DNA from: a virus
Reading direction: 5' to 3' (one strand)
Virus record (IMG/VR): IMGVR_UViG_3300020473_000023
Span: 32,001-96,000 of that record
DNA: 64,000 bases
A model generated the notes under the pieces. It saw nothing but the letters and a program-made list of their open reading frames with translations, did not search any database and had not been told where the DNA came from. A program made the translations under genes and the position numbers. Of this stretch, positions 23,476 to 39,766 are shown piece after piece (the stretch's first letter is position 1; each line of letters opens with the position of its first letter).

Positions 23476-24203
23476 GAGAACCTCAGTGCTTGTGCAATCT
23501 TTTCTGCTCTTTCAAACCTTGACTCAATTACAGGCCAGTTGAGCTGTTTCATCATTCCATAGGTATATGTCTTAGCATCCTTAAGATAATCTCTATAATA
23601 TGCATGCTGCCAAACGTCCATCACTATAATCGGATATCCGCCAAATGGAACATTTAGACTGTGAAGGTCAACAATAGTATTGACATACCTTTGCAAGTAT
23701 GTATTAAAATAGGTCACAGCCCAGCCGCAGCGAGATGCCATACAGCAAGCTATAAAATCTTTTTGCCAGGCATCGAACGTTCCAAAGTCACGCTCCAGCC
23801 TCATATATGCCAAAGAGTCCATTCCGATTTGACTGTGTAGATCGCTAATATTTGCAAAATAAAGCTCATGCAAATAAATGGCATTCATGTTATATGTTTC
23901 ATCAATCTTAAGTGCTCTGTACTGAGAATGATTTGAGCTTACCTCTTCTCTATTTGCTGAGTCCAGCTGAGCACTGATTTTATTGAAATCATCAATGTAT
24001 TGCTCGTAAAGCTCAAGATGGTTTGTCTTATTTTGCTTACTTAAAAGCTCAGTGGGCAAATTAAACACCTTGTCTTGAGCGACATATGCTTCTTTGACTA
24101 AATTATTTCCCGGAATATCAGTCTCAGCATCAGTAGTGGGTTCTTCTTTATCAATTCCCAGGGTTTCTCTTATGTTCTTAATGATTTCTTCTTCTGTGAT
24201 CAT
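23472..24203 (-). CDS. Fe/Mn superoxide dismutase-like protein with N-terminal extension
   Basis: NHLELY, LHELYF, FGTFDAW, GWA, DVWQHAYY. Confidence 0.85.
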   Translation of the reverse strand: MITEEEIIKNIRETLGIDKEEPTTDAETDIPGNNLVKEAYVAQDKVFNLPTELLSKQNKTNHLELYEQYIDDFNKISAQLDSANREEVSSNHSQYRALKIDETYNMNAIYLHELYFANISDLHSQIGMDSLAYMRLERDFGTFDAWQKDFIACCMASRCGWAVTYFNTYLQRYVNTIVDLHSLNVPFGGYPIIVMDVWQHAYYRDYLKDAKTYTYGMMKQLNWPVIESRFERAEKIAQALRFS

Positions 24204-24526: not shown

Positions 24527-24946
24527 TTAATTATCATCCTTAGAGATAAACTTAACTACTTCTATCTCAGCATCTCTTAAGATTTCTAAAGAAGTTAAGT
24601 CCCTATAGTCTTCTGAATATACCACAGTAGAGATTCCTGAGTTGACAATTGCTTTTGCGCACATCCTGCACGGGCTTAGGGTGACATACATAATCTTCTT
24701 TTTAGGGTTGTTATAATCCATCTTAAGAAGGGCGTTAATTTCAGCATGAATCATTCCCGACTCTCCTGGAGAAGATGACTCTACTTCATTCGGGCCCCCC
24801 ATATAGTTTCCATTATATCCGACAGCAAGAACTTGAGTATTATCATCTGTCACAACAACAGCCCCCACTTGGTGCCTTTGATCAACCGATCTTCTTGCTA
24901 TTGAATAGGAAAAATCCATCCATATCTGGTGCCACGTAGGTCTCAT
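24527..24946 (-). CDS. dCMP deaminase (ComEB-like)
   Basis: VGAV, GYNG, HAEINA, PCRMC. Probable start MRPTW at 24946. Confidence 0.92.
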   Translation of the reverse strand: MRPTWHQIWMDFSYSIARRSVDQRHQVGAVVVTDDNTQVLAVGYNGNYMGGPNEVESSSPGESGMIHAEINALLKMDYNNPKKKIMYVTLSPCRMCAKAIVNSGISTVVYSEDYRDLTSLEILRDAEIEVVKFISKDDN

Positions 24947-24959
24947 TTGTCTTCCCTCT

Positions 24960-25634
24960 CTACAGTAAGTTAGAATAAATTGTAGAATAGCTTTTATTGT
25001 ATTTAAATTTTTCAAAATCCTTTTCATAAAATTTTAAAAATTCACTGAGCACATTTGGAAATCTTTCCCACGGAACTCTAATATCTGGAACGTCCTTAAG
25101 CGACACGTTCTCCCGAGGGAGAGAAGTTGATGGAGATATTATTTTTCTTCTCTGCAACTCAGACAAAAGTTCAGGTATTTGATCTTCTATCCTATACCAG
25201 TCTGTTCCTTCTCCGATAAATTCAAATTGGCTTCTAAAGTGATTATCATCTACCCCGGGTCCATTTTTAGGAATTACATTTTTAAAAAGATCTGTTACCC
25301 AGTCAATAAATCCCAGTGGGTGGGGATATTCAATTCCAAACTCTTTTGCCTGCTGCTTTGCTTTAGAAAATATTCTATCGTATGGGTTTCTAACAATAGT
25401 AAATTCATACTCCCACGTTCTATCCCAAAGATCCCTTAGGGCTCTATGCTGATGCTTGGACCGCTTATTGTCAGATACTTGAATCTCTCTAGACATTCTA
25501 GTCGGAAGAGGTCTATCTTTTTCAGCAATCTTCCACCCCTGGCTTTCGATCATCTTTCTAACAGAGCTTCCGCCAGCCTTTGGAATGTGAACAAATAAAA
25601 TTCTTCTTCCTTCACGTTCGTATATTGATGACAT
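24960..25634 (-). CDS. Sulfotransferase (Sulfotransfer_2 type)
   Basis: FVHIPKAGGSS (5'-PSB), VRNPYDRIFS (3'-PB), HFRSQ, YEKDF..F.Y. Confidence 0.85.
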   Translation of the reverse strand: MSSIYEREGRRILFVHIPKAGGSSVRKMIESQGWKIAEKDRPLPTRMSREIQVSDNKRSKHQHRALRDLWDRTWEYEFTIVRNPYDRIFSKAKQQAKEFGIEYPHPLGFIDWVTDLFKNVIPKNGPGVDDNHFRSQFEFIGEGTDWYRIEDQIPELLSELQRRKIISPSTSLPRENVSLKDVPDIRVPWERFPNVLSEFLKFYEKDFEKFKYNKSYSTIYSNLL

Positions 25635-26623
25635 TATTCCTCATCTTTAGATGACTCAATTTTATCTAAGATCTCTTCAACCTTGGCAACTGCCTCCTTG
25701 TCGCTCTCTTCTGCTAGAGCACTCTGAATTTTCTTAAGCTCTTCGCGAGCAGCTGAGGTGTCAACAGGCTCCTCTTCGACAGGCTCCTCTTCGGGGTCAA
25801 AGATATCATCAACACAAAGCTCGCCGCTTATCTGAAATCCTGCAGCTTTTTTGTGACCACCGCCTCCAAAACTCTTTGCAATCTCAGAAACATCAACTGC
25901 ATCATGAAAAGCCCTTAGGCTTACCTTGTTGATTCTATCCTCATGATCATAATACCATATAACAGCAAAGTCGCAATCAGGTGCAAGCCTAGCTCCGATC
26001 TCAGACATCCAGTGAGAAGAATTAACTACTATGACCTTCATTCCCTTATATTTTCTTACAACTGCCTTTTCACAAACCTTTTTAATGACTGTTTTACTAT
26101 AAGCAAGTATGTAAGATCCACGCTTAACAGCATCATCAAACACAGAATCATCTTCAAACTTCTCAAACTCTTCAAACTCGAATGGCACCATGTCAAATGC
26201 AGCACTAAACTCTTTTGAATAATCAAGCTCCCACTTCCAAAGATCTCGATCCTGAATATACTTGATAAACTTCGGCGGCTCTTTTCCTGGGTGAAACCAC
26301 TCCCATGCAAGCATTGCTCCGGATTTTGTCATATCAAAATGTGTGTTCGATATATCGTGAAGCTCTACCATCGCAGACTTATGGTGATCAATGACCAGCA
26401 ATGAGTTTGCTTCATCAATCATCTTCTTTGTCGTGGCATTGTCAAAGGAAAAATCTAAGATTACCACATTTTTTCCTTTGACATCTGGTGGAGGTGTGCC
26501 ATGTTTGCAAGCGTAGTATTCTGTTCTATTTCCTAAAAACTTCCAGGCTGAATAAGCCGCACCGAATCCGTCAGTACAGTTTGCATGGTAAATTACACAA
26601 TTCACACTGCTTGGTTCAATCAT
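25634..26623 (-). CDS. DHH/DHHA1 phosphoesterase (NrnB-like)
   Basis: YHANCTDG, ILDFS, DHH, GGGGHKKAAGF. Confidence 0.9.
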   Translation of the reverse strand: MIEPSSVNCVIYHANCTDGFGAAYSAWKFLGNRTEYYACKHGTPPPDVKGKNVVILDFSFDNATTKKMIDEANSLLVIDHHKSAMVELHDISNTHFDMTKSGAMLAWEWFHPGKEPPKFIKYIQDRDLWKWELDYSKEFSAAFDMVPFEFEEFEKFEDDSVFDDAVKRGSYILAYSKTVIKKVCEKAVVRKYKGMKVIVVNSSHWMSEIGARLAPDCDFAVIWYYDHEDRINKVSLRAFHDAVDVSEIAKSFGGGGHKKAAGFQISGELCVDDIFDPEEEPVEEEPVDTSAAREELKKIQSALAEESDKEAVAKVEEILDKIESSKDEE

Positions 26624-26658
26624 TTTTTACCCACCTGAAACAATAAGTTCATCAATAT

Positions 26659-27216
26659 CTATTTTGACTGATTCATAAAACTGTGATGAAACCAGGATCT
26701 TGGCTCATAGAGCTCAGAGCCACCGACAGTAATTTCATCAAGACCAGAAAGCTTTCTGTGTGTATAGTACGCATCCTGCCCGGAAATTGGACACACAGCG
26801 GGACAAACCTCAATCTTTGTTGCCCATGGCATCATGTCTCTAATTTCCTCAAAAACATTTCCACTAGCAGAAAGCTGAAGTGAAGATACTACAACAGTCT
26901 TTCCCTCTCTAAAGAGGGAGAGAAGTGCTGATGCAGAACCATCTATCATAAAAGCCTCATCTACGGCAATAACATGAATATTTTCTTTATCCTGTAGATA
27001 TTTTAATATATCTTCACCAGTTTTTACACATGTGGCTGAAATCTTTCCCCCTGAATGTGTACAGATCTCACCTAAAGAATACCTGTCGTCCATTGCAGGC
27101 TTAAAGCAGACAATATTTCTATTTTGATATCTAAATCGATCTAGAGTTGCCATAAGCCTGGTCGTCTTAGATCCAAACATGGGACCAGTAAAAATTATAA
27201 ATTCAGGAATTCTCAA
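26659..27216 (-). CDS. tdk: Thymidine kinase
   Basis: GPMFGSKTT, KP..DDRY, VDEA, VGG.E.YEP. Confidence 0.9.
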   Translation of the reverse strand: MRIPEFIIFTGPMFGSKTTRLMATLDRFRYQNRNIVCFKPAMDDRYSLGEICTHSGGKISATCVKTGEDILKYLQDKENIHVIAVDEAFMIDGSASALLSLFREGKTVVVSSLQLSASGNVFEEIRDMMPWATKIEVCPAVCPISGQDAYYTHRKLSGLDEITVGGSELYEPRSWFHHSFMNQSK

Positions 27217-27634
27217 CTATAACCTCCGCAAGGTGTGCAAATGACTTATCCTCTCTTCCATAGTCGTCAATAATTCTAATTACACTATGATTTCTAGTGT
27301 CCCCTATTTCAAATATTATTGAATCTACTTCGGCTGTTATTCTATATGGACACTCAGATTGAATATTTAAGCACTCACCTTGAGACAGCGTCATCTTTCT
27401 CATTGGATGATTTGAAGGGTCTTCAAAAAATCCCTGATCTGCACAGTCAACAGAAACTCTCCCTTGAACGACAAATAAAGTTTCTGTCTTAACTTTATTC
27501 ATTTTAAAACTTAGCCTCTTTCCAGCTTCAATGGTTAGAATTTTTCCATAAGCATTTGGTGCTGTCCATGAAACCTCTGTGCCCCACGGCTTTACGTGAT
27601 TGTTGGAGACACCTCCCCATATTGCCTTACTCAT
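27203..27634 (-). CDS. Cupin (mannose-6-phosphate isomerase type II C-terminal-like)
   Basis: KPWG, K.L.I.AGKRLS, RIIDDYGR. The usual metal-binding His residues appear substituted. Confidence 0.7.
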   Translation of the reverse strand: MSKAIWGGVSNNHVKPWGTEVSWTAPNAYGKILTIEAGKRLSFKMNKVKTETLFVVQGRVSVDCADQGFFEDPSNHPMRKMTLSQGECLNIQSECPYRITAEVDSIIFEIGDTRNHSVIRIIDDYGREDKSFAHLAEVIVENS

Positions 27635-28631
27635 CTTTAAGACCCCACCACTCAACTGTTCTTTCTAGTCCCTCCCAAATTCTCACAACAGGCTCATACC
27701 CAAAATCTTCTCTAGCATTTGTAATATCTGCCTGAGTGTGCATAACGTCACCCGGCCTCCACGGTGCGTCAGTCACCTCTATATTAGGAAATTTATCTCT
27801 GAAGAAATCTAAGATTTGATTGTTTGTTGTTCTATCTCCGCAGGCAATATTATAATACTGTCCCTCAAAATCATCATCTCGACTTGCTACTAAAATATTA
27901 GCCTGAACAACGTTGTCAATATAGCAAAGGTCCCTTGACTGTGTTCCATCTCCATCACTCCTTAGGGGAAGGCCTCTAAGGACAGCATTGCACCATGCAG
28001 AAACAGCTGTTGAATACGGAGAATCTCCATACTGCCCTGGGCCAAATACATTAAAATATCTTAGGCACACAATATCAATATTATAAAGATTGCAAAAAAC
28101 ATTTGCGAGGTCTTCAATTGAAGATTTCTGCCAAGCATATGGAGATTTGGGGTCCTTTGGGTGATCTTCTGAAGTAGGCATTAAATCTGCCCCTCCGTAA
28201 ACAGAAGAGGATGATGCCCAGACAATTCTTCTAACGTTTCCAACACATGCTTCAAATAACCTGACAGTAGATCCAATATTTGTATTTGTTGTTATAGAGG
28301 GATTTTCAACAGAAAACAAGACTCTGGGTATTGCTGCCTGATGAAATACAACATCATATTTTCTCTGAGATATTTGATAAATTATTCCATCGGCAGCGAA
28401 GTCATCCTGAATAACCACAACAGTTTCCTGACCCCTTCCTGACTGTTTGTTAAATTCCGGGAGAAACTCTGAACTCGGAATTACTCTAAAGCTTAGCCCT
28501 TCTAAAAGCTCTAGATGGCCGTTTGACATATCGTCTACGATGTCAACTGTCCAGCCTTGACTGACAAGCTCTTTTGTTAGATTTGATCCGATGAATCCAC
28601 ATCCGCCTGTAACTAGTGCTCTTTTTTCCAT
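27627..28631 (-). CDS. NAD-dependent nucleotide-sugar epimerase/dehydratase
   Basis: TGGCGFIG, SSSSVYG, YAWQK, RYFNVFGP. Confidence 0.92.
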   Translation of the reverse strand: MEKRALVTGGCGFIGSNLTKELVSQGWTVDIVDDMSNGHLELLEGLSFRVIPSSEFLPEFNKQSGRGQETVVVIQDDFAADGIIYQISQRKYDVVFHQAAIPRVLFSVENPSITTNTNIGSTVRLFEACVGNVRRIVWASSSSVYGGADLMPTSEDHPKDPKSPYAWQKSSIEDLANVFCNLYNIDIVCLRYFNVFGPGQYGDSPYSTAVSAWCNAVLRGLPLRSDGDGTQSRDLCYIDNVVQANILVASRDDDFEGQYYNIACGDRTTNNQILDFFRDKFPNIEVTDAPWRPGDVMHTQADITNAREDFGYEPVVRIWEGLERTVEWWGLKDE

Positions 28632-28650
28632 ATTTCTACCTCGGTATATC

Positions 28651-29559
28651 TTACTCAAGAATGTGTGCAGAGTTTAAAGTGAAATGCATTCTACAAAAAT
28701 TACATCCTTCACCAAGCAGGCTCCAGCATTCTGAAGCTATAAAGTATAGAAACTTTAAATCGTGCTGAAACTTGTTATTAATATCTGTTGATCTACAGAC
28801 AAATCTGATATCTAGGACTCCGCCTCTGTTGAGAATGTGAATCATTGAGATGCAGGTATCTTCTGTGAACACGTACCTTCTAGAGCCTATACCTTCTTTT
28901 CTTTCATACGGATTATTTCCTGCTTGCTCATCATCTATTTTATTCATCAGTGTGTTGTAGATGTGACAATAGTATTCTTTCTCTGACTCCTCACTCATAG
29001 AAGATATATCTGACTCTTTAAATTCACCATCGTCATGAAGTGTAAAGGTTAGTTGATTGCACTCCTTGTTTGGAAAGTGTTTGACAAAATTCCCAATCTG
29101 GCCGTAGATCTCTTTTAAGCTTAGATTCTTTTCAATGCAATTATGATAGTCAACAACCATGCTTGCAAGACGCCCTGATGCTCCATTCATAATGCCATAG
29201 ACGTTTGAGAGTGCAGGCCATCTGGCAAACTCTTTGTAAAAGTAATCATACGAATCCTTAAGAGATTCAATTGTGTGAATTTCATCTCCCCGGTGATTGT
29301 ACCTTTCTCTAAGGACCTCAAATGTAGGCATCATAAAAACATATCTGTTGTTAAGATTGCTAACCTCTTCATAGAATTCTCTAGTTGCTTGATCGACATC
29401 TCTGTTATACATCTTAGAAAATACCATTCTTGATAGCTTCGACCTATCCATTAGATGCCATCGGTAGTCAGTCTTTTTGTGAATGTCACTAATAAGTGTT
29501 GTCTTTCCAGAAAGGTCTGGCCCTTCAATGGAGATCATATTGATTGGAAAAGTTAGCAT
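28651..29559 (-). CDS. dNMP kinase fused to a truncated thymidylate synthase/dCMP-hydroxymethylase-like domain
   Basis: N-terminal EGPDLSGKTT, DRS, RGD. C-terminal SRR, DTC, RSTD-x7-D, SAHI. Confidence 0.75.
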   Translation of the reverse strand: MLTFPINMISIEGPDLSGKTTLISDIHKKTDYRWHLMDRSKLSRMVFSKMYNRDVDQATREFYEEVSNLNNRYVFMMPTFEVLRERYNHRGDEIHTIESLKDSYDYFYKEFARWPALSNVYGIMNGASGRLASMVVDYHNCIEKNLSLKEIYGQIGNFVKHFPNKECNQLTFTLHDDGEFKESDISSMSEESEKEYYCHIYNTLMNKIDDEQAGNNPYERKEGIGSRRYVFTEDTCISMIHILNRGGVLDIRFVCRSTDINNKFQHDLKFLYFIASECWSLLGEGCNFCRMHFTLNSAHILE

Positions 29560-29568
29560 TATCCTACC

Positions 29569-32500
29569 TCACACATTAATCTTTCTCATCTTGTAGGAAG
29601 ATGTACTACATCCCCAAGATTCAGTTGATGCAACTTCAGCAATCCATATTGTATATGGATCAGGAACTTCTTTAAACTTTGTCCAGACTCTAAGCCAGCA
29701 GCTTTCAGAATTGTTATCGCAAACTCTCATTCTATAGAATATCTTTCCATTCTTGGTCTTCTTCTCAATAATTTCCTGAATGCAGAACCAGACTACATCT
29801 TTTGTCTTTCCAGAGAGTGCAGTAATCGGCTTAAGTTCAGACTTCTTAATCTTTTCCATTATCTTGGGAGGAAAGACAAGCGTCTCGTCAGCTCCTGACA
29901 TTAAGTCAACACTGAACCCGATCTTTAGGGTTCGAGACCAGTCAGCAGACCCGTAGTTGTCAACAATAAGCTTAGGAACAAATTCCTCAACAGTTGCCTG
30001 TGTCTTGAGGAGGCGCTTATGTGCAGTCTTTGTCATCCCATACCTACCTTTCTTCAATTGATCATAGTTTCCAACAATTATATCATGAAGCTGTCTGTGA
30101 TTTTGAATTTCTCCTTGGGATATTTCTGCTATACTTCCAAACGCCTCTACCTTACAAAGAGAATCAAAGGCTGTTTTATTTAGCTTGGAAGGCTTCCACT
30201 TCCCATCTTCTGTAAATAAAATATCATCAAGGGTGCTATATGGTCTATTTTCCATAATCTCAGTAACAGCAGATCCTCCAACACCTTTGATAGCAGTAAG
30301 CGGTGGTACGAACCCTTGCCTTTCTTCACTATACACCCAGACGTCTGAAGAAGCATTGATATCGGGTTGAAGGATTTTATATCCTAGTGACTTGATCTCT
30401 GCTATGATCTTTGCAAACTTTGGAGATCCGTTCCACGTCTGAAGGCATGTAGCGAGCCATTCCTTTTCATGGTATGTGTGTAACCATGCAGAATAATATG
30501 AATCAACAGCGTAGGCGACCGCATGTGACTTATTGAAGCCATAGGCAGAGAACGCCTCAATTGTCTCGTAGAGCTTGGTTGCTTTGTCTTCTGCCATGCC
30601 AGATAGTTTAACGGCACCTCCAATAAACTTCTCTCTAAGGTCAGCCCTCTCTTTTGCCTTTTTGTCATTCATGTCAAGAGACTTCTTGACAAGAGTCTTT
30701 CTCATCTTATCTGAAGCGCCTTTGTCGAATCCGCACAGCTTTTGTGCAATAAGCATGAACTGCTCCTGAAAGACGACGAATCCACGGCTTTCGCTTAGGA
30801 GATCTTCAAGGACAGGGTGGTCGTATGTAATGCTTTCAATGTTTTCACCGGCCCGAACATATTTCCTATGAACGTTAGCTGCAAGGGGTCCTGGTCGATA
30901 GATTGCTGTAATGGTTGCAAGGTCTTCAATAGATCTAGGCTTGGCAGCCACACAGAAGTTTCTAGCACCTGTATTTGTGAACTGAAATACTTGGACGAAT
31001 CTCCCATCGTGATAAACGTATTCCCAAACCTTTTGATCATCCATCTTGTGAAATCTACTATTTAGATTTGCATCAAAGAATTCATTAATATCGTCAAACG
31101 TAGGATTTTCTACGCCTTGGTTTCTTAGGATGAGTCTGATAGAATCTTCCACCATTTTAAGAGTTGCTAGCCCAAGAAAGTCAAATTTAAGAAATCCATT
31201 CTCTTCAAGGTGCCTCCAGTTCATTCCTTCTGACCACGGTGTTTGAAGCTCACCCCTAACTTTAATGACAGGCATACTGCTCTCAAGATCTGGGCAGACT
31301 AATACACCGCCAGCATGGCGACCGATCGATCTAGGCTCCATAAAGAGAGATTGAACGTGCTCTGCAATCTTAGGGTTATCGTTCATAAATTCCCGATAGG
31401 GTTCGCTGTATTTCATGCAGTCCTCATGAGAAAGAACATATGTTGACTTTTCCTCATGATCACCCATGGCTCTTGGCATTACCTCTCTTTCCAGCGGACC
31501 TGTTAGAGCGTTTATCTTATCAAAAGGAATTCCATAAAACTTAGAAACGTCCTTAACAAGTGACCTTAACTTTAAAGTGTTAAAGTTGGAGACAGGTATG
31601 ACAGAGTCTTCGCCAAAGAGCTCTCGAGAGACATCGATGAGTACATCTCTATCACCTACGTCAGAATCAATATCAGGCCAAGAAGCCTTGTGAATGCCAA
31701 GAAATCTCTCGAACAGAAGCCCATATTGAATAGGGTCAATGTGGGTAATCCCAAGGACATAGTTTACTAAGCTTCCGCCACCAGAACCTCGACCCGGACC
31801 GAGTAGAGTTCTATGCTGAGACTTCTCAAACACCTTAGTTAGAGTCAAGAAGTAATTTTCAAAGCCTAGCTGCTTAATAACAGACATTTCCTCCCTAATC
31901 CGATTGACGTACTCGAGATTGTCATGAAGCCCTTCTTTGATCATTCCCTGCTTTACCTGTTCAACAAGCTGAGTAAACGCAGGCTTCTCAGGTGTTCCGA
32001 AGTTTGGAAGCTTTGCTGATCCGTCAAACCAGACTTCTTCGCAGAGGTCCCAGGCAATTCCATGAGATCTCTCAATTGCTTCTCGAACAGCTGTCTCACT
32101 TCCCTTATAGAAATCATATTTATCATAGCTCTTTCCAAATTCATCCCACATCTGCTGTGCATTCTTAGGATAGAGCTCACACTTTAAATCCTCCTTCTGG
32201 GGAAGTTTAGGCATTTCATCGCCTCTTGCACCCATTCTTCCAAGCATCTTATACATCTCTCTTGCCTCCCACATGTCTGGATTGCAATAGTGAGAATCAG
32301 CTGTGGCAAGAAGTGGGACTCCTGTCTTTTCAGAAAGCTTGATCAAGCACCTATTGGCAAGGTTTTGTGCAACAAGATCATTAAACTGTATTTCAAGAAA
32401 AAAGTTTTCTTCGCCTACGGCATCTACAAATCTGTCTGTCATATTCTCAAGCTTTCTCATGATCTGATTAAGGACAACAGGATCGTCTACAAGATCGGGT

Positions 32501-33153
32501 GTCAGCTCATCAAACCTCTTTCCTTCAAAGTGCTGAAAGATATGGCCCGAAGGACGCCCACCAACACACGCTGTGGACACAGCAAGCCCTTCAGAGTGTT
32601 CCTTAAGCATCTTGTAGTCAATACGGGGAAACCTATAGAACCCCTCCTTGTATGATCTCTTGACCAATCTAAAGAGGTTCTGCAACCCTTTGTAATTCTT
32701 AGCGAGAACTACAAGATGGTACCGCTTTTTCCAGGAGGGATAGGTTCCCCTCTCTGCCTTGGATTCATCTTCGTTTTCAATAACCAAGCCATCGTTCTCA
32801 TCCCCCTCAGAAACCTCACTCTTTGACTTCTTCTGAAGTTCTTTCTCAAGCCTGACCTGCTCTCTATATTGATTATAGTCTGTTTGCCATTCGTCTAAGT
32901 CATCTACAAAGTAGCACTCACAGCCATAGATGTGTCGATATCCCACCCCTTTGTTCTTTAGCTTTTTAGCATAGTTGTGAGCATGAGCAGCAGAGTTCAT
33001 GTGCCCATGATTTGTTAATGCAAAAGCATCCATTCCATTTTCAAGAACAAAGTCAATATGCTCGTTAGGGTATCCAAGGCCATCATATACAGAGCTTCCA
33101 TCGTGAGCATGAAGACCTACAAATCTTTTAGGTATGGTAAAATTATTAAACAC
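29569..33153 (-). CDS. dnaE: DNA polymerase III alpha subunit
   Basis: PHP domain (HAH, TNHG, DSHY), GRGS, PDIDSD, KFDFLGL, FNKSH, C-terminal OB fold. Confidence 0.96.
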   Translation of the reverse strand: MFNNFTIPKRFVGLHAHDGSSVYDGLGYPNEHIDFVLENGMDAFALTNHGHMNSAAHAHNYAKKLKNKGVGYRHIYGCECYFVDDLDEWQTDYNQYREQVRLEKELQKKSKSEVSEGDENDGLVIENEDESKAERGTYPSWKKRYHLVVLAKNYKGLQNLFRLVKRSYKEGFYRFPRIDYKMLKEHSEGLAVSTACVGGRPSGHIFQHFEGKRFDELTPDLVDDPVVLNQIMRKLENMTDRFVDAVGEENFFLEIQFNDLVAQNLANRCLIKLSEKTGVPLLATADSHYCNPDMWEAREMYKMLGRMGARGDEMPKLPQKEDLKCELYPKNAQQMWDEFGKSYDKYDFYKGSETAVREAIERSHGIAWDLCEEVWFDGSAKLPNFGTPEKPAFTQLVEQVKQGMIKEGLHDNLEYVNRIREEMSVIKQLGFENYFLTLTKVFEKSQHRTLLGPGRGSGGGSLVNYVLGITHIDPIQYGLLFERFLGIHKASWPDIDSDVGDRDVLIDVSRELFGEDSVIPVSNFNTLKLRSLVKDVSKFYGIPFDKINALTGPLEREVMPRAMGDHEEKSTYVLSHEDCMKYSEPYREFMNDNPKIAEHVQSLFMEPRSIGRHAGGVLVCPDLESSMPVIKVRGELQTPWSEGMNWRHLEENGFLKFDFLGLATLKMVEDSIRLILRNQGVENPTFDDINEFFDANLNSRFHKMDDQKVWEYVYHDGRFVQVFQFTNTGARNFCVAAKPRSIEDLATITAIYRPGPLAANVHRKYVRAGENIESITYDHPVLEDLLSESRGFVVFQEQFMLIAQKLCGFDKGASDKMRKTLVKKSLDMNDKKAKERADLREKFIGGAVKLSGMAEDKATKLYETIEAFSAYGFNKSHAVAYAVDSYYSAWLHTYHEKEWLATCLQTWNGSPKFAKIIAEIKSLGYKILQPDINASSDVWVYSEERQGFVPPLTAIKGVGGSAVTEIMENRPYSTLDDILFTEDGKWKPSKLNKTAFDSLCKVEAFGSIAEISQGEIQNHRQLHDIIVGNYDQLKKGRYGMTKTAHKRLLKTQATVEEFVPKLIVDNYGSADWSRTLKIGFSVDLMSGADETLVFPPKIMEKIKKSELKPITALSGKTKDVVWFCIQEIIEKKTKNGKIFYRMRVCDNNSESCWLRVWTKFKEVPDPYTIWIAEVASTESWGCSTSSYKMRKINV

Positions 33154-33175
33154 TACTACTTGCCTCCTATGTTTA

Positions 33176-33203
33176 ATTGTAAATCAAATAGGGAAAATTT
33201 ACA
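33176..33203 (-). promoter_or_regulatory. Class A promoter TGTAAA-N16-TACAAT
   Basis: Upstream of dnaE, followed by SD AGGAGG. Confidence 0.6.
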
Positions 33204-33215
33204 TGAAAATAGAGA

Positions 33216-34286
33216 TCAATCTATAAATTTTCTTCTCAGCCTGAGGGACTCTAGCTTTTCAATAAGCTCTTTCTCTTCTGGGGAAGCGTCTGTCGGGATG
33301 CTTACAGTAACATGAACATTGTGAAATCCACGAATCTGAGCATTGATATCAACAGGAAGCCCTTCATTTGAAATTTGAATAATATCACCTGGCTGAATTC
33401 CCGGTCTAATTTCTACAGAAAGAGTCTTATCTATTCCCCCTATATTAACCTTTGACCCAAGAACAGCTTCACTATAGGATATAGATACGTGACTATGAAT
33501 ATCACTACCATCCCTATAGAGCTTCTGGTGATCTTTGACTACAATCTCTAAGAAAGCATCTCCGGCAATGTCCGCTGTGGCTTCTTTGTTTCCCATGCCC
33601 GAAAGCTTAAGAACATTTCCAGAATGGATTCCACTGGGTATCGAGACATTAATTTCCTTTTTCTTTCGTACAGACCCAGAACCGTGACAGCTAGAGCATG
33701 GGTTGGATATTGTAAATCCGTATCCTGAGCAGCTTCCACAAGAAGTTGCAAATGTTACAAACCCCCCGACACTTTGCTGAACCCTTCCTGTTCCGGCGCA
33801 TGTCTTGCACCTAGACCTATCTGACTTATCTAAATAGCCATGCCCTGAACACGGTTCACATAGAACTATTTGATTGATATGAATAGTCTTACTGCAACCT
33901 GTTAGGACTTCTTCAAGGTCTATTTCAATCGTATTCTTAGTGTCTGATCCCTTTCTCTTAACATCACGCTGTCTTCTTCCACCAAAAAAGTGATCAAATC
34001 CTGAGAACATATTTTCAAAATGTCCGAATATATCTCTTGGATCGAACTGAGAAGAGAAGCTAGAAGAGACACCCTCGTGTCCAAATCTATCATAATTTAC
34101 ACGCTTTTCAGGATCAGAAAGCACTGAATAAGCCTCGGCTGCTTCTTTAAATTTTAGCTCAGCATCCGGATCATCTGGATTCTTATCAGGATGATATTTC
34201 ATAGCCTGCTTTCGATAAGCTTTCTTTATATCACCCTCAGAAGAGTCTTTTTTAACTCCTAGTATTTCATAATAGTCTCTTTTCAA
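33216..34286 (-). CDS. dnaJ: Chaperone DnaJ
   Basis: J domain with HPD, G/F region, four CxxCxGxG repeats. Confidence 0.95.
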
Positions 34287-34540
34287 ATATCTTTCTCGTA
34301 ATAGTTTCTAGTTACAATCATTTCAGATTTCTCACCGTCTACAGAGTATTTAATCTCCATTTCCCAAGAAGGCTCTTTGACATTGTTTAAGAATCTTTCC
34401 TGAATATAGAATAGCTCGTCTCTTCGCTTAACTTTTTCTACTTCTTCTTTTGCAGACTCCCAAGAAGAGAAAATTCCAACCAAGGAAGTTGAAATATTTC
34501 TACATCGGATAAGGGCATATACTTTATTCAATACTTCCAT
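34283..34540 (-). CDS. Hypothetical protein
   Basis: KVY...LVGIFSS.E.A pattern common in phage ORFs. Confidence 0.5.
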
Positions 34541-34964
34541 AGTAAGGCTCATGAAGAAGCATGCTGAGATCTGAGCATCGAGAAAGATAATCATCAAGCT
34601 CATCAAACGAGGTGCAGACCTTGGCCCCCGATTGTGCTAGCATTAGATTAAATGTAGCTCCTTCTGGAAGCCCTGCACAAAAATAAACTATAGGTGTATC
34701 AGATTGAAAGGCAACGCCTGCTTCAAAAATACTTCCCATATCTTTATCGCGAGTATTGCAAATTACAAAGTCATTTCCAAGAATGTGTTCAACATTTCCC
34801 TCAAACGTCTCTCTTTGTGTCTTAAGATCAGCTGTTGGCGGACATACAAAGAAGTCTTTTGGTGAAAAATAGTCAAATCCATTTTTTGTAAGAAGTGATT
34901 TAATAGTTTCAACCTCCTCAAAGGCAGTCGGTGTAAACCAAGAGCTTGCAATATACGCTTTCAT
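34524..34964 (-). CDS. Nucleoside 2-deoxyribosyltransferase/nucleotide N-glycosidase family protein
   Basis: YIAS.WF, FSP, DMGSIFEAG, NLML. Confidence 0.82.
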   Translation of the reverse strand: MKAYIASSWFTPTAFEEVETIKSLLTKNGFDYFSPKDFFVCPPTADLKTQRETFEGNVEHILGNDFVICNTRDKDMGSIFEAGVAFQSDTPIVYFCAGLPEGATFNLMLAQSGAKVCTSFDELDDYLSRCSDLSMLLHEPYYGSIE

Positions 34965-34974
34965 TAACTTTCTC

Positions 34975-35964
34975 CTATTTGTTATTGTTCATATAGTTTG
35001 CGTATTCATCTTTCATTTCTTGAATTTCTTCAAGAGTTGAAGTCCAAATTTTCTCAAAAATAGTTGGACCGTCATTAGGAACTGTTCCCTTAATATCTTC
35101 TCGACGAGATTGATAAATTGAATCATCAGGGTGATATTCAAACAGATCGTTCTTTGGCTCCGGCCAGTATAGATTTGTTCCCCTTGAGGTGAAGCCACCT
35201 TGTCCATCGGAAACTCTAAAAGTCTTTACATAGTGCATATCAGGCTTGTCAAAGTTAATTCTAGAAGAGGCTTCTGGGAGAACCTTGATTAGCTCCTTAG
35301 CCATATAGGCTGCCAGCAAATTGTCTGCAGCTGGTTGAATTTGCATATCTTGCCTCTGGGCGATGAAGCCTAAAAGATCTTTGAGATTAAGTCTCATCAG
35401 ATAAAAAGATGTCATGCACTTTGGAAGAATCATTCTAGCATCCATCATAGAGACATCTTTTGAATCTGTCATGTCTGCATAGAGCTGCTTTGCCTCCCTT
35501 GTTAGTGTAATCCACCTATCTAAAAATTCAGGAGAGTTTTCAACAGCCTCAGGAATAACAGCAGGATCATCACGAAGATCTCGATCGCCGGTGCACTGGG
35601 CGGCAAAAGAACCGGCTCGGTGTCGAATAATATGCGTGACTTCCTGGAATGACAAGCCGCTTAATTTAAAAGTAAACCCAAAACATTCCATTGGTGTTGG
35701 TAGTGCCCTAAAGCAGAGGACGTCTTCCAGATTAGAGGACATTTCTTGCGGTGTGGCTGTTGTAGGATTTGTGTCATCAGGGTTGTCTGCCCAGGTGGCT
35801 TTTACGTACTGCCAGGCAACGTTTAATGCCTGATCCCGAGTTGGATAGTCAACAAGCTCAACCTTTAAGGCTGACAAGTTGTTAAAAAATTCTGTAGTAG
35901 GCTCCTGTCCGAACTTTAGGTCCATTGGGAGACTGATTGGCTTAAGATTATGATTGACTGGCAT
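34975..35964 (-). CDS. thyX: Divergent flavin-dependent thymidylate synthase (ThyX-like)
   Basis: HIIRHR..SF, DARMILP, NLKDL..F..QR. The RHRx7S serine is replaced by Cys. Confidence 0.75.
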   Translation of the reverse strand: MPVNHNLKPISLPMDLKFGQEPTTEFFNNLSALKVELVDYPTRDQALNVAWQYVKATWADNPDDTNPTTATPQEMSSNLEDVLCFRALPTPMECFGFTFKLSGLSFQEVTHIIRHRAGSFAAQCTGDRDLRDDPAVIPEAVENSPEFLDRWITLTREAKQLYADMTDSKDVSMMDARMILPKCMTSFYLMRLNLKDLLGFIAQRQDMQIQPAADNLLAAYMAKELIKVLPEASSRINFDKPDMHYVKTFRVSDGQGGFTSRGTNLYWPEPKNDLFEYHPDDSIYQSRREDIKGTVPNDGPTIFEKIWTSTLEEIQEMKDEYANYMNNNK

Positions 35965-36020
35965 TTATCTTCCTTTCATATTGATTGTTACACGAAGGTG
36001 ACACTTTGTTCACCTCTTTT

Positions 36021-36974
36021 TCACATAAAATTATTCTTCATTAAAAGAGCGTCGATGAGAACTCTTAGCTGGCTCGGGCCATAATACATCTTGACGCCTT
36101 CAACACTTTCAAGCTCTGAATTGTATGAAGTAACGGGAGAAAGAGTTGAAACTCCGTGCTTGGCATATTCAGCGCTATGTTTGGCAGAATCATCAATAGC
36201 ACATACAATTTTTCCAGAGTCAAAATATTCAGACTTAGTTAGCCATCTATACTTCTCAGCGCTAAAATCAACTCTGTGAAATTTTAACCCTGATTTGCTT
36301 AGCCACCTGTATGTATCATACTTACATTGAAGAACATCTCCTGGCCGAGCTGTTAAGAGTTGAATCCAGCATCCGCTATCATAAAAGTGATTTATAGTCT
36401 GTACGACACCTGTATCTACTGTGAGAGTTCTAAGCTTTCTTTCTGCCAAAAAGTCATCAAATACTTCTTCAGGATTTAGTCCGGCATCTCTAACTTCTGA
36501 TGTAGTATAATACTCAGTAGACTCTCTGTCGACTAAAACGCCTCTCTCGGATTCAAGCCAGTCAATAAAGTTAGATCTAAAATGTGCAATCACATCATCA
36601 ATATCAAATACAAGGACAGGCTGGCCCTCCCAGGCCTGAGATTCGATATGATATCTCATATGAAGAAACATGTCCTTATCTTCAAATGCGTCAGATAGAG
36701 ATCCTGGGTCTATGTTCCAAAGATTTAAAATTGCAAGAAGATATCTAAAAACATCAACTGATTCGTATAGAATCTTTGAAGGATCAGCAACGCTCCTAAG
36801 TCGTCTATGATCTTTAAAGTTAACTGCGCTTATTAGTTCAGAAACTTCGGCATGAAGAGCCAGGGCAAAAGATTTTGTCATCTCTTCTCTTTCACTATCT
36901 GACATATTTTCAGGTTTAAAAAAAAGATCAGAAAATTTATTTTGACGATTAAAGAAATAGTCTAAGTCTCTCAT
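36021..36974 (-). CDS. All-alpha NTP pyrophosphatase (dUTPase/MazG-like) fused to an NT5C-like HAD nucleotidase
   Basis: EVSE...YESVD, then FDIDDV, LTAR, IDDS. Confidence 0.8.
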   Translation of the reverse strand: MRDLDYFFNRQNKFSDLFFKPENMSDSEREEMTKSFALALHAEVSELISAVNFKDHRRLRSVADPSKILYESVDVFRYLLAILNLWNIDPGSLSDAFEDKDMFLHMRYHIESQAWEGQPVLVFDIDDVIAHFRSNFIDWLESERGVLVDRESTEYYTTSEVRDAGLNPEEVFDDFLAERKLRTLTVDTGVVQTINHFYDSGCWIQLLTARPGDVLQCKYDTYRWLSKSGLKFHRVDFSAEKYRWLTKSEYFDSGKIVCAIDDSAKHSAEYAKHGVSTLSPVTSYNSELESVEGVKMYYGPSQLRVLIDALLMKNNFM

Positions 36975-36990
36975 ATTTCCTCCTAGTTCA

Positions 36991-37018
36991 ATTATAACTT
37001 AGAAAGAAATAAAGTACA
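36991..37018 (-). promoter_or_regulatory. Class A promoter TGTACT-N16-TATAAT
   Basis: Upstream of 36974 with SD AGGAGG. Confidence 0.6.
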
Positions 37019-37025
37019 TGAGATA

Positions 37026-37397
37026 CTAATATCCTTCTGTCAACCTTTTGTGAATTACTTCGTCCTTTCTAGTATACTCTCTAAACAAATCATCTGAGCT
37101 AAATCCTGTCATAATGAGAAGAGAGAAAAAGTAATTAAAGGCATCAACCATCTCTTCAAGAAACTTCTCTCTATCGAACCCAGAGATCTCAGTGACTCTA
37201 TGCGGTTTCCAGTTTTTAAGATGCTGAAGGGCTTCGAACATTTCTTCGACACCCCTTAGAGCGACATCCCTGCAAATCTGCTGATCCTCTTTTTTACTTA
37301 GGTCTAGAGGGGCGGTTGGAGTTGATCCGGGAATTTTTTCACCCAAAGATCTCATAAACAGCTCCCTCAGTTCAAACATAGAATCAAGCTTGTCCAT
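37026..37397 (-). CDS. All-alpha dUTPase/dCTPase (MazG-like)
   Basis: EEMFE, WKPH, EEMVD, K...HKR...GY. Confidence 0.8.
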   Translation of the reverse strand: MDKLDSMFELRELFMRSLGEKIPGSTPTAPLDLSKKEDQQICRDVALRGVEEMFEALQHLKNWKPHRVTEISGFDREKFLEEMVDAFNYFFSLLIMTGFSSDDLFREYTRKDEVIHKRLTEGY

Positions 37398-37405
37398 CTA
37401 AAATA

Positions 37406-37645
37406 TCAACTCTCAACTAGAAGAGAGTCAACTGCGAGTGCTTCCGCGTCATCAAGCATTTTCTGAACTTGACCGTCTGATATTTCCCTATATTCACTTG
37501 TTAAAACAAGCTCCTCGTCATTCTCTTCAGAGGTGGTAACCTTAATCATTCTAAGGTGATCAACTACGTCTGTTCCGCTTAGGATGGCCATTTGCAAAAG
37601 TTTTGCTACGTGGCTGATGACTTCATTTGAAAGTGTATAATTCAT
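37406..37645 (-). CDS. Hypothetical protein
   Basis: Packed ORF. Confidence 0.6.
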   Translation of the reverse strand: MNYTLSNEVISHVAKLLQMAILSGTDVVDHLRMIKVTTSEENDEELVLTSEYREISDGQVQKMLDDAEALAVDSLLVES

Positions 37646-37647
37646 AT

Positions 37648-38454
37648 TTACTCCTGTACTTCTGGAACCCAGTGGGTGGTTCTTCCATCTTTTGTTTTTT
37701 CTTTTATGACAGTGTTTCCGTGCGGATCTGTCTTTTGATTATAAACCAAAAACCTTTGACTGTATTCTCCTATCTCTCCTTCAAATCCAGAATATGTACT
37801 AATTGTAGCACCTCCTGTATCATAGGACGCCCTTATTGTCTTCTTGATGCTTTCATTTAAAAGAATGATCTCTTGATCTGAGAGAGATTTGCATGCCCTG
37901 TGGGGTGAGATTTTTGAAATGTAAAGAGATTCTGCTTTAAGATAGTTTCCAACCCCGGATATCACAGACTGATCCATTACAGCTTGGGCAATTGTCTTTT
38001 TATTGCACGCTCTAATTCTTCTTAAAAAGTCATCATTCTTAACATCGTCATTTAGCATGTCAGGCCCTAGAGAGTTTAACTTATTAATTAAAAGATCTTT
38101 TCCCCTTACAATCTTTAAAGTTCCAAAGTTTCTAATATCGTTAAAAAAAATAGACTCTCCGCCTAGACAAATCTTGACCCTTGAGTGCTTGTTGCGGGTT
38201 CCCGACCACGTCCCAGACATTCCCAGTGTATTCCAAATAGCCCATTCATTTTCAAGAATTATAAAGATAAACTTTCCATGACACCCAGCACCTGCAATTT
38301 TCAATGGAAGTTCATGTAAAATACTATCAAAACCGTCGGGCGGACCGTGATTCTTATATCTACCAGATAAAATCTCAATGCCATCTAGAGATTTCCCCCC
38401 AACTCTTTCAGCAAGAGATTCAGCAATTCTTCTAACTTCTGGGCCTTCTGGAAT
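37648..38454 (-). CDS. Fpg/Nei DNA glycosylase with zincless finger (ATT start)
   Basis: In-frame extension gives (M)PEGPEVR. Also GK, LGMSG, DIRNFG, LGPD, H2TH DQ..ISGVGNYL, GRTTHW.P..Q. Confidence 0.92.
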   Translation of the reverse strand: MPEGPEVRRIAESLAERVGGKSLDGIEILSGRYKNHGPPDGFDSILHELPLKIAGAGCHGKFIFIILENEWAIWNTLGMSGTWSGTRNKHSRVKICLGGESIFFNDIRNFGTLKIVRGKDLLINKLNSLGPDMLNDDVKNDDFLRRIRACNKKTIAQAVMDQSVISGVGNYLKAESLYISKISPHRACKSLSDQEIILLNESIKKTIRASYDTGGATISTYSGFEGEIGEYSQRFLVYNQKTDPHGNTVIKEKTKDGRTTHWVPEVQE

Positions 38455-38473
38455 GACACACCTCCTACTTAGT

Positions 38474-38501
38474 AGTATAATTTATATCAGGAGCTTGTTC
38501 A
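38474..38501 (-). promoter_or_regulatory. Class A promoter TGAACA-N16-TATACT
   Basis: Upstream of the Fpg/Nei SD AGGAGG. Confidence 0.55.
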
Positions 38502-39161
38502 ATGAAAAGAATCATAGTTTCGGACACACACATAGGGACTAGATTCTATAAGTCTGAAGAGCTTTTAAAGTTTCTTAAAACAGAGGAGTTTGATCAGCTC
38601 ATACTTGCAGGCGATATCATAGACTTTATTAAGATACCGACATTTACTGAGAGGTGTATGGAGATCTTGGAGGCAATTGGAAAAAACAAGGAAATCATAT
38701 ACGTCGTAGGAAATCATGATGAAAGCCTGGTTGGATTAATTGGTAGGCAATTTTTTAATATTAAATTTGTTAAGAAGTATGAGTTTCAAGAGGGAAAGAG
38801 AAAGTTTAGAATAGAGCACGGAGATGACTATGACAAGGGTGTAATTCACAATAGAGTCTTTATTAAGCTCCTATCAGTTATTCAAAATATGCTAGAATTT
38901 GCATTTAACTTTGACTTCACAACGTGGTGGACGTCGATTCAAATTAAAAGGCATAAGCTGAGGAGTGTTATTCATATCCTTAGACATCACCCAAATATTG
39001 ATGTATTTATAATGGGACATACACACATACCTGAAGCAGTTATCTGGATAGACGAAGATCAAAATATTAAAACATATATCAATGCAGGTGACTGGGTTAC
39101 ACACCAGACATATGTTACAGTAGTTAACGGCGTGTCTAGACTAAGAAAGTTTGAATCTTAG
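38502..39161 (+). CDS. Calcineurin-like metallophosphoesterase (LpxH-like)
   Basis: SDTH, GDIID, GNHD, HGD, GHTH, NAGDW. Confidence 0.88.
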   Translation: MKRIIVSDTHIGTRFYKSEELLKFLKTEEFDQLILAGDIIDFIKIPTFTERCMEILEAIGKNKEIIYVVGNHDESLVGLIGRQFFNIKFVKKYEFQEGKRKFRIEHGDDYDKGVIHNRVFIKLLSVIQNMLEFAFNFDFTTWWTSIQIKRHKLRSVIHILRHHPNIDVFIMGHTHIPEAVIWIDEDQNIKTYINAGDWVTHQTYVTVVNGVSRLRKFES

Positions 39162-39588
39162 ATTTTTCTTCATTCTCTCTAAGCCAGCCGTGATAGTCGT
39201 TAAGGGCGTGGTCTCTTGGCTCAACATTTCTCCAGTCACCTAAGCAAAATATCCTGTAAGCATCAGAAGCATACTTTCCTATTCCATACAGAACTTCTGG
39301 ACTATTTCTCCAGTCTTTTGTTAGGTAATCATTAGACATTCTAATAAGTGTCTTAGATCGTCTCTGAGACAATCCGAGCGGTTGAATCATATTCTGCAAT
39401 TTTTTTTGATTTGCACATGCTGCCTTTTCAGGGGTAGGGTAAAGATCAAAAAACTTCCACATATAAGGTTCCGATTCAACCCTTTTTGTTAGATTGCAGA
39501 ATATACAGGCTACAAATATCTTCCAGGGGTCTTTCCAGAGACTCTCTTGAATTAAGTTATACGGTGACTTCGGGGGCATCCATGTCAT
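39136..39588 (-). CDS. MBD4-like HhH mismatch DNA glycosylase
   Basis: PPKSPYNLIQE.L..DPWK, LYGIGKYASDAYRIFC, P.DH.L..Y..WL. Confidence 0.88.
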   Translation of the reverse strand: MTWMPPKSPYNLIQESLWKDPWKIFVACIFCNLTKRVESEPYMWKFFDLYPTPEKAACANQKKLQNMIQPLGLSQRRSKTLIRMSNDYLTKDWRNSPEVLYGIGKYASDAYRIFCLGDWRNVEPRDHALNDYHGWLRENEEKSKIQTFLV

Positions 39589-39766
39589 TGTCATCTCCAG
39601 TATTATCATACTGAAGCAGATCTCTGTTGTTCAAGCTCTTCTTTTGAACTATCCTGTCTGAAATAGCACATGCTAGTTCGAGAAATGTGTTTCCAATAAA
39701 ATTTATGACTAGAGATAGAATCACCATAAAGACAATTACGATAATTATCGACGGAATCTGTGTCAT
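39557..39766 (-). CDS. Small membrane protein
   Basis: N-terminal hydrophobic helix. Confidence 0.45.
   Translation of the reverse strand: MTQIPSIIIVIVFMVILSLVINFIGNTFLELACAISDRIVQKKSLNNRDLLQYDNTGDDNDMDAPEVTV

Follow-up and report, generated by a model that had tools for sequence, protein, structure and literature searches.

To our knowledge, homologs of thymidylate synthase (TS) are the entry point of all known prereplicative pyrimidine hypermodifications in phages, and each new branch of these homologs has so far given a new DNA base, that is, 5-hydroxymethylcytosine, 5-hydroxymethyluracil, 5-methylcytosine, and 5-hydroxycytosine. Phage T4 combines a pyrophosphatase (gp56), a TS homolog (gp42), and a kinase (gp1) with a branch of deaminase (cd) and thymidylate synthase. 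The same pathway logic is met in the stretch of DNA described here, a window of 64,000 nucleotides comprising bases 32001–96000 of the 106,284-bp IMG/VR record IMGVR_UViG_3300020473_000023 (coordinates are window positions). With moderate confidence, the stretch is read as a module for replication and pyrimidine nucleotides in an uncultured jumbo phage of marine origin, with one unusual element, namely the gene directly after dnaE, which encodes a kinase fused to a minimal TS domain (mini-TS). A first-pass annotation had proposed that the genes around dnaE form an undescribed modified-cytosine genome system with its own synthesis, pool exclusion, polymerase, and deamination repair; every gene class that it named was found in its place.

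Several sequence features have been connected with the substrate and the product of TS homologs (Lee et al., NAR 2026, PMC13326640). An Asp at the position of Asn177 of ThyA (N177) selects deoxycytidine monophosphate (dCMP), and an acidic residue at the position of Leu143 (L143) accompanies nonmethyl products. The replacement of Asp169 by Asn (D169N) is the mark of the flavin- and O2-dependent 5-hydroxy-dCMP synthases, that is, RB69 gp48, DLP3 gp80, RL38J1 gp216, and HY126 AfhB. In DLP3, RB69, and RL38J1, a gene for a YorR/TMK-like kinase adjoins that of the TS homolog (PMC13326640).

Architecture and Conserved Residues of the Fusion

The AlphaFold2 (AF2) model of the 302-residue fusion, based on an alignment of 39 relatives, shows two confidently predicted domains (predicted local distance difference test 94, predicted template modeling score 0.90). 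In detail, residues 5–148 form a deoxynucleoside monophosphate (dNMP) kinase similar to YorR and thymidylate kinase, and residues 146–302 a minimal TS fold of 155 residues. The dCMP-modifying enzyme with a kinase that the first-pass annotation had suspected is therefore a real two-domain protein, for which dCMP modification is predicted.

In structural comparisons with VIA-align, the kinase half matched YorR of a Bacillus subtilis prophage (3kb2, Z 13.9) and the dTMP kinase 5h70 (Z 12.5), with thymidylate and deoxynucleoside kinases overall at Z 11–13; YorR was also found by a profile search of the PDB (E 6.7e-7). The domain has the P-loop kinase fold and the P-loop, DRx, and LID arginine motifs of the thymidylate kinase/YorR-like dNMP kinases. 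Its invariant residues are E12, G13, D15, G18, and K19 in the P-loop, D38-R39-S40 (DRS), and R90-G91-D92 (RGD).

The C-terminal half has the alpha/beta fold of the TS superfamily. With VIA-align, it matched MilA (Z 11.9, root-mean-square deviation 2.8 over 137 residues), AfhB (Z 11.5), and ThyA (Z 10.9). Since these values lie within 1 of each other, the nearest fold cannot be told among the three, and the naming of any of them as such was dropped. Foldseek gave >250 matches at E ≤ 1e-3, of which those listed are TS-family entries, and the best were the phage HY126 AfhB entries 9iqu (top, E 4.9e-6) and 9iqc.

The sequence alignments agree in their register. When the C-terminal domain was aligned by hhalign with T4 gp42, RB69 gp48, and Escherichia coli ThyA together, the probability was 93% (E 3.8e-8) with an exact register; with RB69 gp48 alone, it was 91%. 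In a profile search of the PDB, the T4 dCMP hydroxymethylase was matched in register, although weakly. In the numbering of ThyA, R227/R228 of the fusion correspond to R126/R127, C236 to C146, R256/S257 to R166/S167, D259 to D169, and H299 to H207, whereas E233 stands at the L143 position and D267 at that of N177. The spacing C-x19-RS and D-x7-D is exact.

Conservation was counted over 116 members of the fusion family with 35–88% identity. C236, R227/R228, R256/S257, E193, Y196/Y197, and D267 are invariant (116/116), H299 is present in all 115 members that reach this column, and Y218 in 114 of the 116. The candidate equivalents of E58 and Y94, which were placed by eye, are 98–100% conserved. 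H207 of ThyA contacts the deoxyribose 3′-OH. The family thus keeps the catalytic Cys, the phosphate binders, and the His of the TS superfamily, and all 116 members carry the cytosine-type Asp in place of Asn177. The L143 position is acidic (Asp or Glu) in 74% of the members, and the D169 position holds D in 68%, N in 23%, and E in 9%. In this phage, E233, D259, and D267 reproduce the gp42-type combination of an acidic L143 position with Asp169 and Asp177. By the published rules for the N177 and L143 positions (PMC13326640), these residues indicate dCMP as the substrate and a nonmethyl product.

Comparison with Known Cytosine-Modifying Enzymes

The fusion is the kinase/TS-homolog pair of DLP3, RB69, and RL38J1 joined in one chain. 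The TS fold, the Asp at the N177 position, and the acidic L143 position are common to the 5-hydroxy-dCMP synthases and the fusion, and RB69 gp48 likewise stops just after the S-A-H motif. On the other hand, the YorR/TMK-like kinase is adjacent in those phages and fused here, their enzymes have Asn at the D169 position where this phage has Asp, and the domain described here is about 60–80 residues shorter. The 5-hydroxy-dCMP synthases come from T4-like phages, whereas the fusion belongs to marine jumbo phages and neighbors a family-C polymerase. Genes for arabinose or hexose transferases were not found among the ~90 proteins scanned on this contig.

T4 gp42 agrees with the fusion in the Asp of the specificity site, in the acidic residue at the L143 position, and in Asp169, and keeps the folate-closing C-terminus that is missing from the TS domain here, which PF00303 fails to detect. 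The pyrophosphatase of the locus is homologous to T4 gp56 and, together with the dCMP deaminase and a thymidylate synthase, gives the T4-like pyrimidine arrangement that had been proposed from the gene layout. The remaining parts differ: the kinase is TMK/YorR-like and fused, not gp1-like, ThyX and DnaE stand in place of ThyA and a family-B polymerase, and the scan of the ~90 proteins found no counterpart of the T4 glucosyltransferases. Concerning the product, the Asp at the D169 position suggests a hydroxymethylase, whereas the truncation and the nearest structures suggest a hydroxylase.

MilA (PDB 5b6e, 5b6d, and 5jp9), the top VIA-align match of the TS domain, is also a cytosine-specific TS homolog. 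In contrast to the fusion, it is a bacterial, stand-alone protein of 318 aa which acts on a ribonucleotide, as a CMP hydroxymethylase in antibiotic synthesis.

As to the novelty claimed for the system, the principle of TS homologs that make 5-substituted dCMP beside a TMK/YorR-like kinase is already published (PMC13326640). Only this architecture and this subfamily are undescribed, as a fused, minimal, and Pfam-invisible branch of the TS-homolog route to modified cytosine.

Distribution of the Fusion and Its Link to dnaE

Relatives of ~300 aa number 213 in marine metagenomes, and none is usefully named. Among 1.84 billion representatives, a profile of the mini-TS domain found 454 clusters (50% identity), mostly 300-aa fusions and, in some cases, stand-alone proteins of 165–200 aa that carry the same motifs and fall in no Pfam family. 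By tblastn, the fusion occurs in no cultured phage, and a single full-length copy was found among 185,579 species genomes, on a contig of a metagenome-assembled genome that is probably mis-binned and gives no hint of the host. The family is therefore nearly virus-only. This branch is abundant in the ocean, is present in most of the DnaE-carrying jumbo-phage clade, and goes unseen by standard annotation.

The fusion gene starts 9 nt behind dnaE and overlaps by 8 nt with the following epimerase gene, which reaches over its stop codon. As the genes from dnaE to that of thymidine kinase (TK) overlap or sit 9 nt apart, they form one operon. The arrangement is not a product of chance, because it is seen again in 80 related viral loci. 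DnaE lies within 10 kb of the fusion in all 80 fusion-anchored IMG/VR loci. Conversely, 62 of the 69 loci that are anchored on this DnaE clade and have enough downstream sequence contain the fusion, which is usually the gene directly after dnaE. In relatives such as L035, L071, and L084, the DnaE match is split into two or three tblastn pieces across 5–7 kb, which suggests inteins, introns, or inserted genes.

The absence of the fusion from the other seven DnaE loci was confirmed by a hidden Markov model search within them. The whole records of five of the seven were also without it, including a 318-kb genome that is 93% complete. The fold, the conserved catalytic set, the fusion of the two domains, and the operon linkage to dnaE are established observations. 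The first-pass annotation had named independent distributions of the components as evidence that would speak against one system. Here, the result is divided: the fusion follows dnaE (62/69) and is tied to the polymerase, whereas other components persist where it is missing, and the remaining genes of the cluster show no demonstrable tie to it.

Proposed Pathway and Alternative Explanations

We lean toward the reading that the fusion places a substituent on C5 of dCMP and then phosphorylates this product for the phage DnaE, amid a T4-like flow of pyrimidines. In such a pathway, dCMP would be supplied, possibly from deoxycytidine triphosphate (dCTP) through the gp56-like pyrophosphatase, and would be held by R227/R228, R256/S257, H299, and Asp267. 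Cys236 would attack C6 and a substituent, likeliest hydroxymethyl or hydroxyl, would be installed at C5. The fused kinase would raise the product to the diphosphate and a cellular nucleoside diphosphate (NDP) kinase to the triphosphate, and the modified nucleotide would be incorporated by the phage DnaE. In parallel, deoxythymidine triphosphate (dTTP) would be made by the dCMP deaminase, ThyX, and TK, as in T4. If the enzyme is active, much of the DNA of marine giant phages would be chemically noncanonical, which would bear on the evasion of restriction and CRISPR, on sequencing bias in viromes, and on estimates of viral diversity. The fused kinase would also offer a compact two-step module for the enzymatic making of modified deoxynucleoside triphosphates (dNTPs).

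A number of points weigh against this pathway. The diagnostic D169N of the proven 5-hydroxy-dCMP synthases is absent, as the residue here is Asp259. PF00303 misses the TS domain both in the protein scan, where the fusion has no Pfam match (E ≤ 0.01), and in a six-frame search of the contig (E ≤ 10), with the controls matched. The protein ends three residues past H299, and the tail of ~55–57 residues which closes over the folate in ThyA is gone. Most of the W80/W83 region is also gone, and the interval between the candidate E58 and Y94 equivalents is ~25 residues versus 36 in ThyA. With the folate-closing C-terminus lost and the W80/W83 region largely gone, neither the cofactor nor catalysis itself is certain, and the missing C-terminus makes the use of methylene-tetrahydrofolate by the fusion doubtful. 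In addition, the gp56-like enzyme could be an ordinary dUTPase, and no DNA glycosyltransferase or other transferase was found with Pfam, PHROG, and NCBIfam among ~90 proteins, many of them without a family, of a contig that covers ~40% of the genome. The loci without the fusion keep the deaminase and TK (6/7 each), NDT (7/7), and the epimerase (5/7), and several of them keep ThyX, MazG, the MazG-HAD protein, and Nei. The substrate, the chemistry, the cofactor, and the incorporation into DNA are what we infer from the locus, and the same applies to the modification of the DNA itself.

With a lower, still appreciable probability, the cluster is an ordinary module for nucleotide supply and repair in a phage with canonical DNA, and the dNMP kinase carries a TS-like half that either binds dCMP in a noncatalytic or regulatory role or is a remnant. 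The deaminase, ThyX, TK, and ribonucleotide reductase (RNR) would then boost dTTP and the other dNTPs, and the MazG, HAD, and DHH proteins would clean the pool. The other genes are common phage auxiliaries which persist without the fusion, also in the 93%-complete 318-kb genome; PF00303 does not recognize the TS domain, which is truncated; and no glycosyltransferase was found among the ~90 proteins scanned. The conservation of the domain is difficult to reconcile with this explanation, since the Cys is fully conserved, and the candidate Glu/Tyr pair and the phosphate binders are kept at 98–100%, across 116 members at 35–88% identity. The stand-alone forms retain the same motifs, which is hard to explain without catalysis, and the Asp that all members keep at the specificity position speaks for chemistry on cytosine. 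It is unlikely that the minimal TS domain performs another C5 chemistry than methyl, hydroxymethyl, or hydroxyl transfer, or uses a cofactor new to the superfamily, with the product passing via the kinase to DnaE as an undescribed base across the clade (>450 protein clusters). Beside the idea of a new cofactor stands a gene for pterin carbinolamine dehydratase, which lies at a distance of 9 kb here and close to the fusion in 25 of the 80 loci.

Quite unlikely is the full integrated system, in which synthesis, the exclusion of dCTP by pyrophosphatases, nucleotidases, and the N-glycosidase, a dedicated polymerase, and repair by the MBD4-like and Nei enzymes would be co-adapted. MBD4 enzymes excise T, U, and 5-hydroxymethyl-U opposite G, and some enzymes of the Rcl/NDT family cleave 5-modified pyrimidine nucleotides, which counts for such a system. 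The phage MBD4-like protein is a close homolog of MBD4 with the catalytic Asp kept, was found within IMG/VR only in this phage group, and occurs in three of the four large genomes with the fusion, whereas the one near-complete genome without the fusion lacks it. At least 22 of its 39 loci are on fusion-carrying contigs, and its other loci lie on 3–21% fragments. The linkage that the first-pass annotation had assumed is not supported by whole records, of which 26 of the 45 with the fusion have the MBD4-like gene versus 1 of 5 without (27/50 overall), a difference that is not significant and is confounded by shared ancestry. Moreover, Nei, the metallophosphoesterase, and the MBD4-like gene are near the fusion in only 10, 11, and 3 of the 80 loci, and the retention of the deaminase, TK, NDT, ThyX, MazG, MazG-HAD, and Nei in relatives without the fusion speaks against a single system. 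E. coli Nei excises 5-hydroxycytosine, and therefore a 5-hydroxy base without shielding would be in conflict with the Nei that the phage itself encodes. It is very improbable that the modified cytosine nucleotide is not meant for DNA at all, and that the enzyme makes, like MilA, a modified (ribo)CMP for a small-molecule product, a signaling molecule, or an inhibitor. MilA, the CMP hydroxymethylase of antibiotic synthesis, is the top VIA-align match (Z 11.9), and NDT-family hydrolases partner MilA-type enzymes in antibiotic-type pathways. Nevertheless, the gene directly follows the replicative polymerase in 62 of the 69 loci, the fused kinase is of a deoxynucleotide type (TMK/YorR/dNK), and the equivalent of H207, the residue contacting the deoxyribose 3′-OH in ThyA, is conserved.

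Nucleotide-Pool and Repair Genes of the Cluster

The genes of the cluster are given in Table 1. Nearly all genes of the contig are on the minus strand, and among the named ones only the metallophosphoesterase gene is divergent.

Table 1. Genes Around the Kinase–TS Fusion, in Their Order Along the Direction of Transcription; the Last Column Gives the Fusion-Anchored IMG/VR Loci (of 80) With the Gene Within 10 kb of the Fusion
Feature	Position	Strand	Evidence	Loci (of 80)
MBD4-type HhH-GPD glycosylase, catalytic domain only	39136..39609	-	phmmer vs PDB E 1.6e-48	3
Calcineurin-like metallophosphoesterase	38502..39161	+	PF00149, PF12850, E ~2e-12	11
Full-length Nei (endonuclease VIII-like)	37648..38454	-	Pfam H2TH, Fapy_DNA_glyco, C-terminal domain	10
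79-aa open reading frame				
gp56/dimeric dUTPase-family all-alpha nucleoside triphosphate (NTP) pyrophosphatase, 123 aa	37026..37397	-	PF08761 27.4 bits (cut-off 22.9), phrog_12184	28
MazG-like NTP pyrophosphatase (N-terminal) + HAD-type phosphatase (C-terminal)	36021..36974	-	hhalign, PHROG	27
Divergent ThyX	34975..35964	-	PF02511 64.6 bits	41
NDT/Rcl-family N-glycosidase-like protein	34524..34964	-	PF05014 E 3.9e-11; PDB 6evs E 1e-4	49
DnaJ co-chaperone	33216..34286	-	Pfam DnaJ, DnaJ_C, DnaJ_CXXCXGXG	14
DnaE-type (family C) replicative polymerase	29569..33153	-	Pfam PHP, DNA_pol3_alpha, finger, HHH_6	80
Kinase–mini-TS fusion, 302 aa	28651..29559	-	AF2 model, structure matches, hhalign	
NAD-dependent NDP-sugar 4-epimerase	27627..28658	-	PF01370 E 8e-45; TviC-like E 6e-52	56
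Small cupin protein	27203..27655	-	phrog_7851 E 1.4e-10; weak Pfam cupin matches	24
TK	26659..27216	-	PF00265 E 7e-31	66
DHH/DHHA1 phosphoesterase	25634..26623	-	phrog_4771 E 3e-79; Pfam DHH, DHHA1	49
Sulfotransferase-like P-loop protein	24960..25634	-	PF03567 E 7.6e-6; phrog_3347 E 2e-18	5
dCMP deaminase	24527..25027	-	PF00383 E 2.5e-22; HAE and PCxxC zinc motifs	70

The family profile of the gp56-like protein aligns by hhalign with T4 gp56 up to the common C-terminal GY end (probability 95%, E 2.3e-8), and this homology and the PF08761 match place it in the gp56/dimeric dUTPase family. Judged from its sequence, it may act on dCTP, on dUTP, or on both. The N-terminal part of the MazG-HAD protein is a paralog of it (probability 98%, E 1.4e-14 by hhalign against the 123-aa MazG-like family), and residues 110–286 have HAD-type matches in PHROG. 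In principle, such a protein could take an NTP down to the nucleoside; it is also found in relatives without the kinase–TS fusion. The pyrophosphatases and the N-glycosidase of the first-pass annotation are thus present, the latter as the NDT/Rcl-family protein, which keeps the position of the catalytic Glu in comparison to 6evs. As for the nucleotidases, the DHH, HAD, and metallophosphoesterase genes exist, and their nucleotidase role is putative. The dCMP deaminase probably starts at an internal ATG ~27 codons downstream of the open reading frame's beginning, and is predicted to make deoxyuridine monophosphate for ThyX.

The ThyX, rightly called a variant, is above the cut-off of Pfam and reaches 39 bits in NCBIfam, where the cut-off is 88. 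Its AF2 model has the ThyX fold and matches ThyX and PolB structures (E ~1e-8). In the family, the RHR motif and the two substrate arginines, R177 and R204, are invariant, as is a Cys at the position of Ser88, the Ser of the RHR-x7-S motif. Because Cys replaces Ser88, the best PDB match of the family profile is the S88C mutant of Thermotoga maritima ThyX (E 6e-6). A conserved C-terminal extension of ~100 aa (Y245, R250, a G-T-N-L-Y-W-P stretch, D281, and R288) is poorly modeled by AlphaFold. Both sequence and model are consistent with a working dTMP synthase, and canonical ThyA occurs in none of the large genomes of the clade. For the MazG-like protein, the MazG-HAD fusion, and the single ThyX sequence, phmmer against the PDB was uninformative.

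Concerning the repair genes, the calls of an MBD4-like and a Nei-like glycosylase were correct. The MBD4-type protein aligns over residues 8–151 with the whole catalytic domain (144 residues) of mouse and human MBD4 at ~50% identity, as estimated from the printed alignment. The catalytic Asp is kept in GKYxxDxYRIF, and the protein is a full-length member of this domain family. It differs from mammalian MBD4 in being a phage gene without the methyl-CpG-binding domain, which raises the question of its evolutionary link to the eukaryotic domain and of the origin of that repair domain. In marine metagenomes, the MBD4-type protein is represented by at least 347 clusters; within IMG/VR, the gene was found only in this jumbo-phage group and is usually located further from the fusion.

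Nei has the features of the Fpg/Nei family, with Pro-Glu at the N-terminus, an H2TH domain, and a finger domain at the C-terminus. The open reading frame made by the program was too short and left out the catalytic N-terminus. This N-terminus (PEGPEV) is restored by a start at the ATT at 38454 (38452–38454), six bases behind AGGAGG. At this codon, 16 relatives have ATG, GTG, or TTG (one CCG), and the ATT could be explained by weak initiation, regulation, or a sequencing error. Together with the NDT-like, DHH, HAD, and metallophosphoesterase genes, Nei and the MBD4-like gene are accessory repair and house-cleaning genes of the lineage, which would suit modified DNA.

Other Neighbors and Genomic Setting

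A link of the epimerase, cupin, and sulfotransferase-like genes with DNA modification was rejected, because the epimerase stays where the fusion is missing, the sulfotransferase-like gene is near the fusion in 5 of the 80 loci, and no transferase was found among the ~90 proteins scanned. The sulfotransferase-like protein is not core to the cluster. DnaJ lies within the stretch and outside the nucleotide system.

The homolog of pterin-4a-carbinolamine dehydratase (18920–19348, minus strand; PF01329 E 5e-14) lies on the downstream side of the fusion; a pterin-dependent hydroxylase was not identified. The adjacent 564-aa protein (19374–21068, minus strand) was considered as a hidden transferase and dropped. 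It belongs to no family, a protein atlas search was negative, and its relatives of 278–1087 aa have in common only a block of ~110 residues (~19% of its length), which suggests a modular, fast-evolving protein.

The contig is a fragment of the jumbo phage genome, with a completeness of ~40% estimated by CheckV for the IMG/VR record. A megablast search of a 16-kb stretch against 50,697 phage records showed no similar phage at the DNA level. The contig also encodes DnaB, a RecA/UvsX-like recombinase, an exonuclease, the large subunit of RNR, and several very large proteins without a family match.

In the whole contig, CpG is depleted (odds ratio 0.62), with a slight excess of TpG and CpA (1.09–1.10). 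Palindromic restriction sites are not markedly avoided in it; the strongest avoidance is that of GGCC (z −3.4), and GATC is not avoided. This composition is compatible with protected or methyl-type DNA and is too unspecific to count as evidence of modification.

Further genes of the window, all on the minus strand, are those of a sigma-70 family factor (5882–6616), a GroEL-type chaperonin (8117–9727), and a protein with a Fe/Mn superoxide dismutase C-terminal domain (23472–24203), the last of which is near the kinase–TS fusion in 58 of the 80 loci. On the same contig, outside the window, the loci L001:11878-12903, L001:12896-13540, L001:18766-19188, L002:4739-5338, and L002:8986-10490 encode a GMP reductase/IMPDH-family enzyme, a PP-loop ATPase, a SET-domain protein, an MT-A70 adenine methyltransferase, and two tandem Methyltransf_24 genes.

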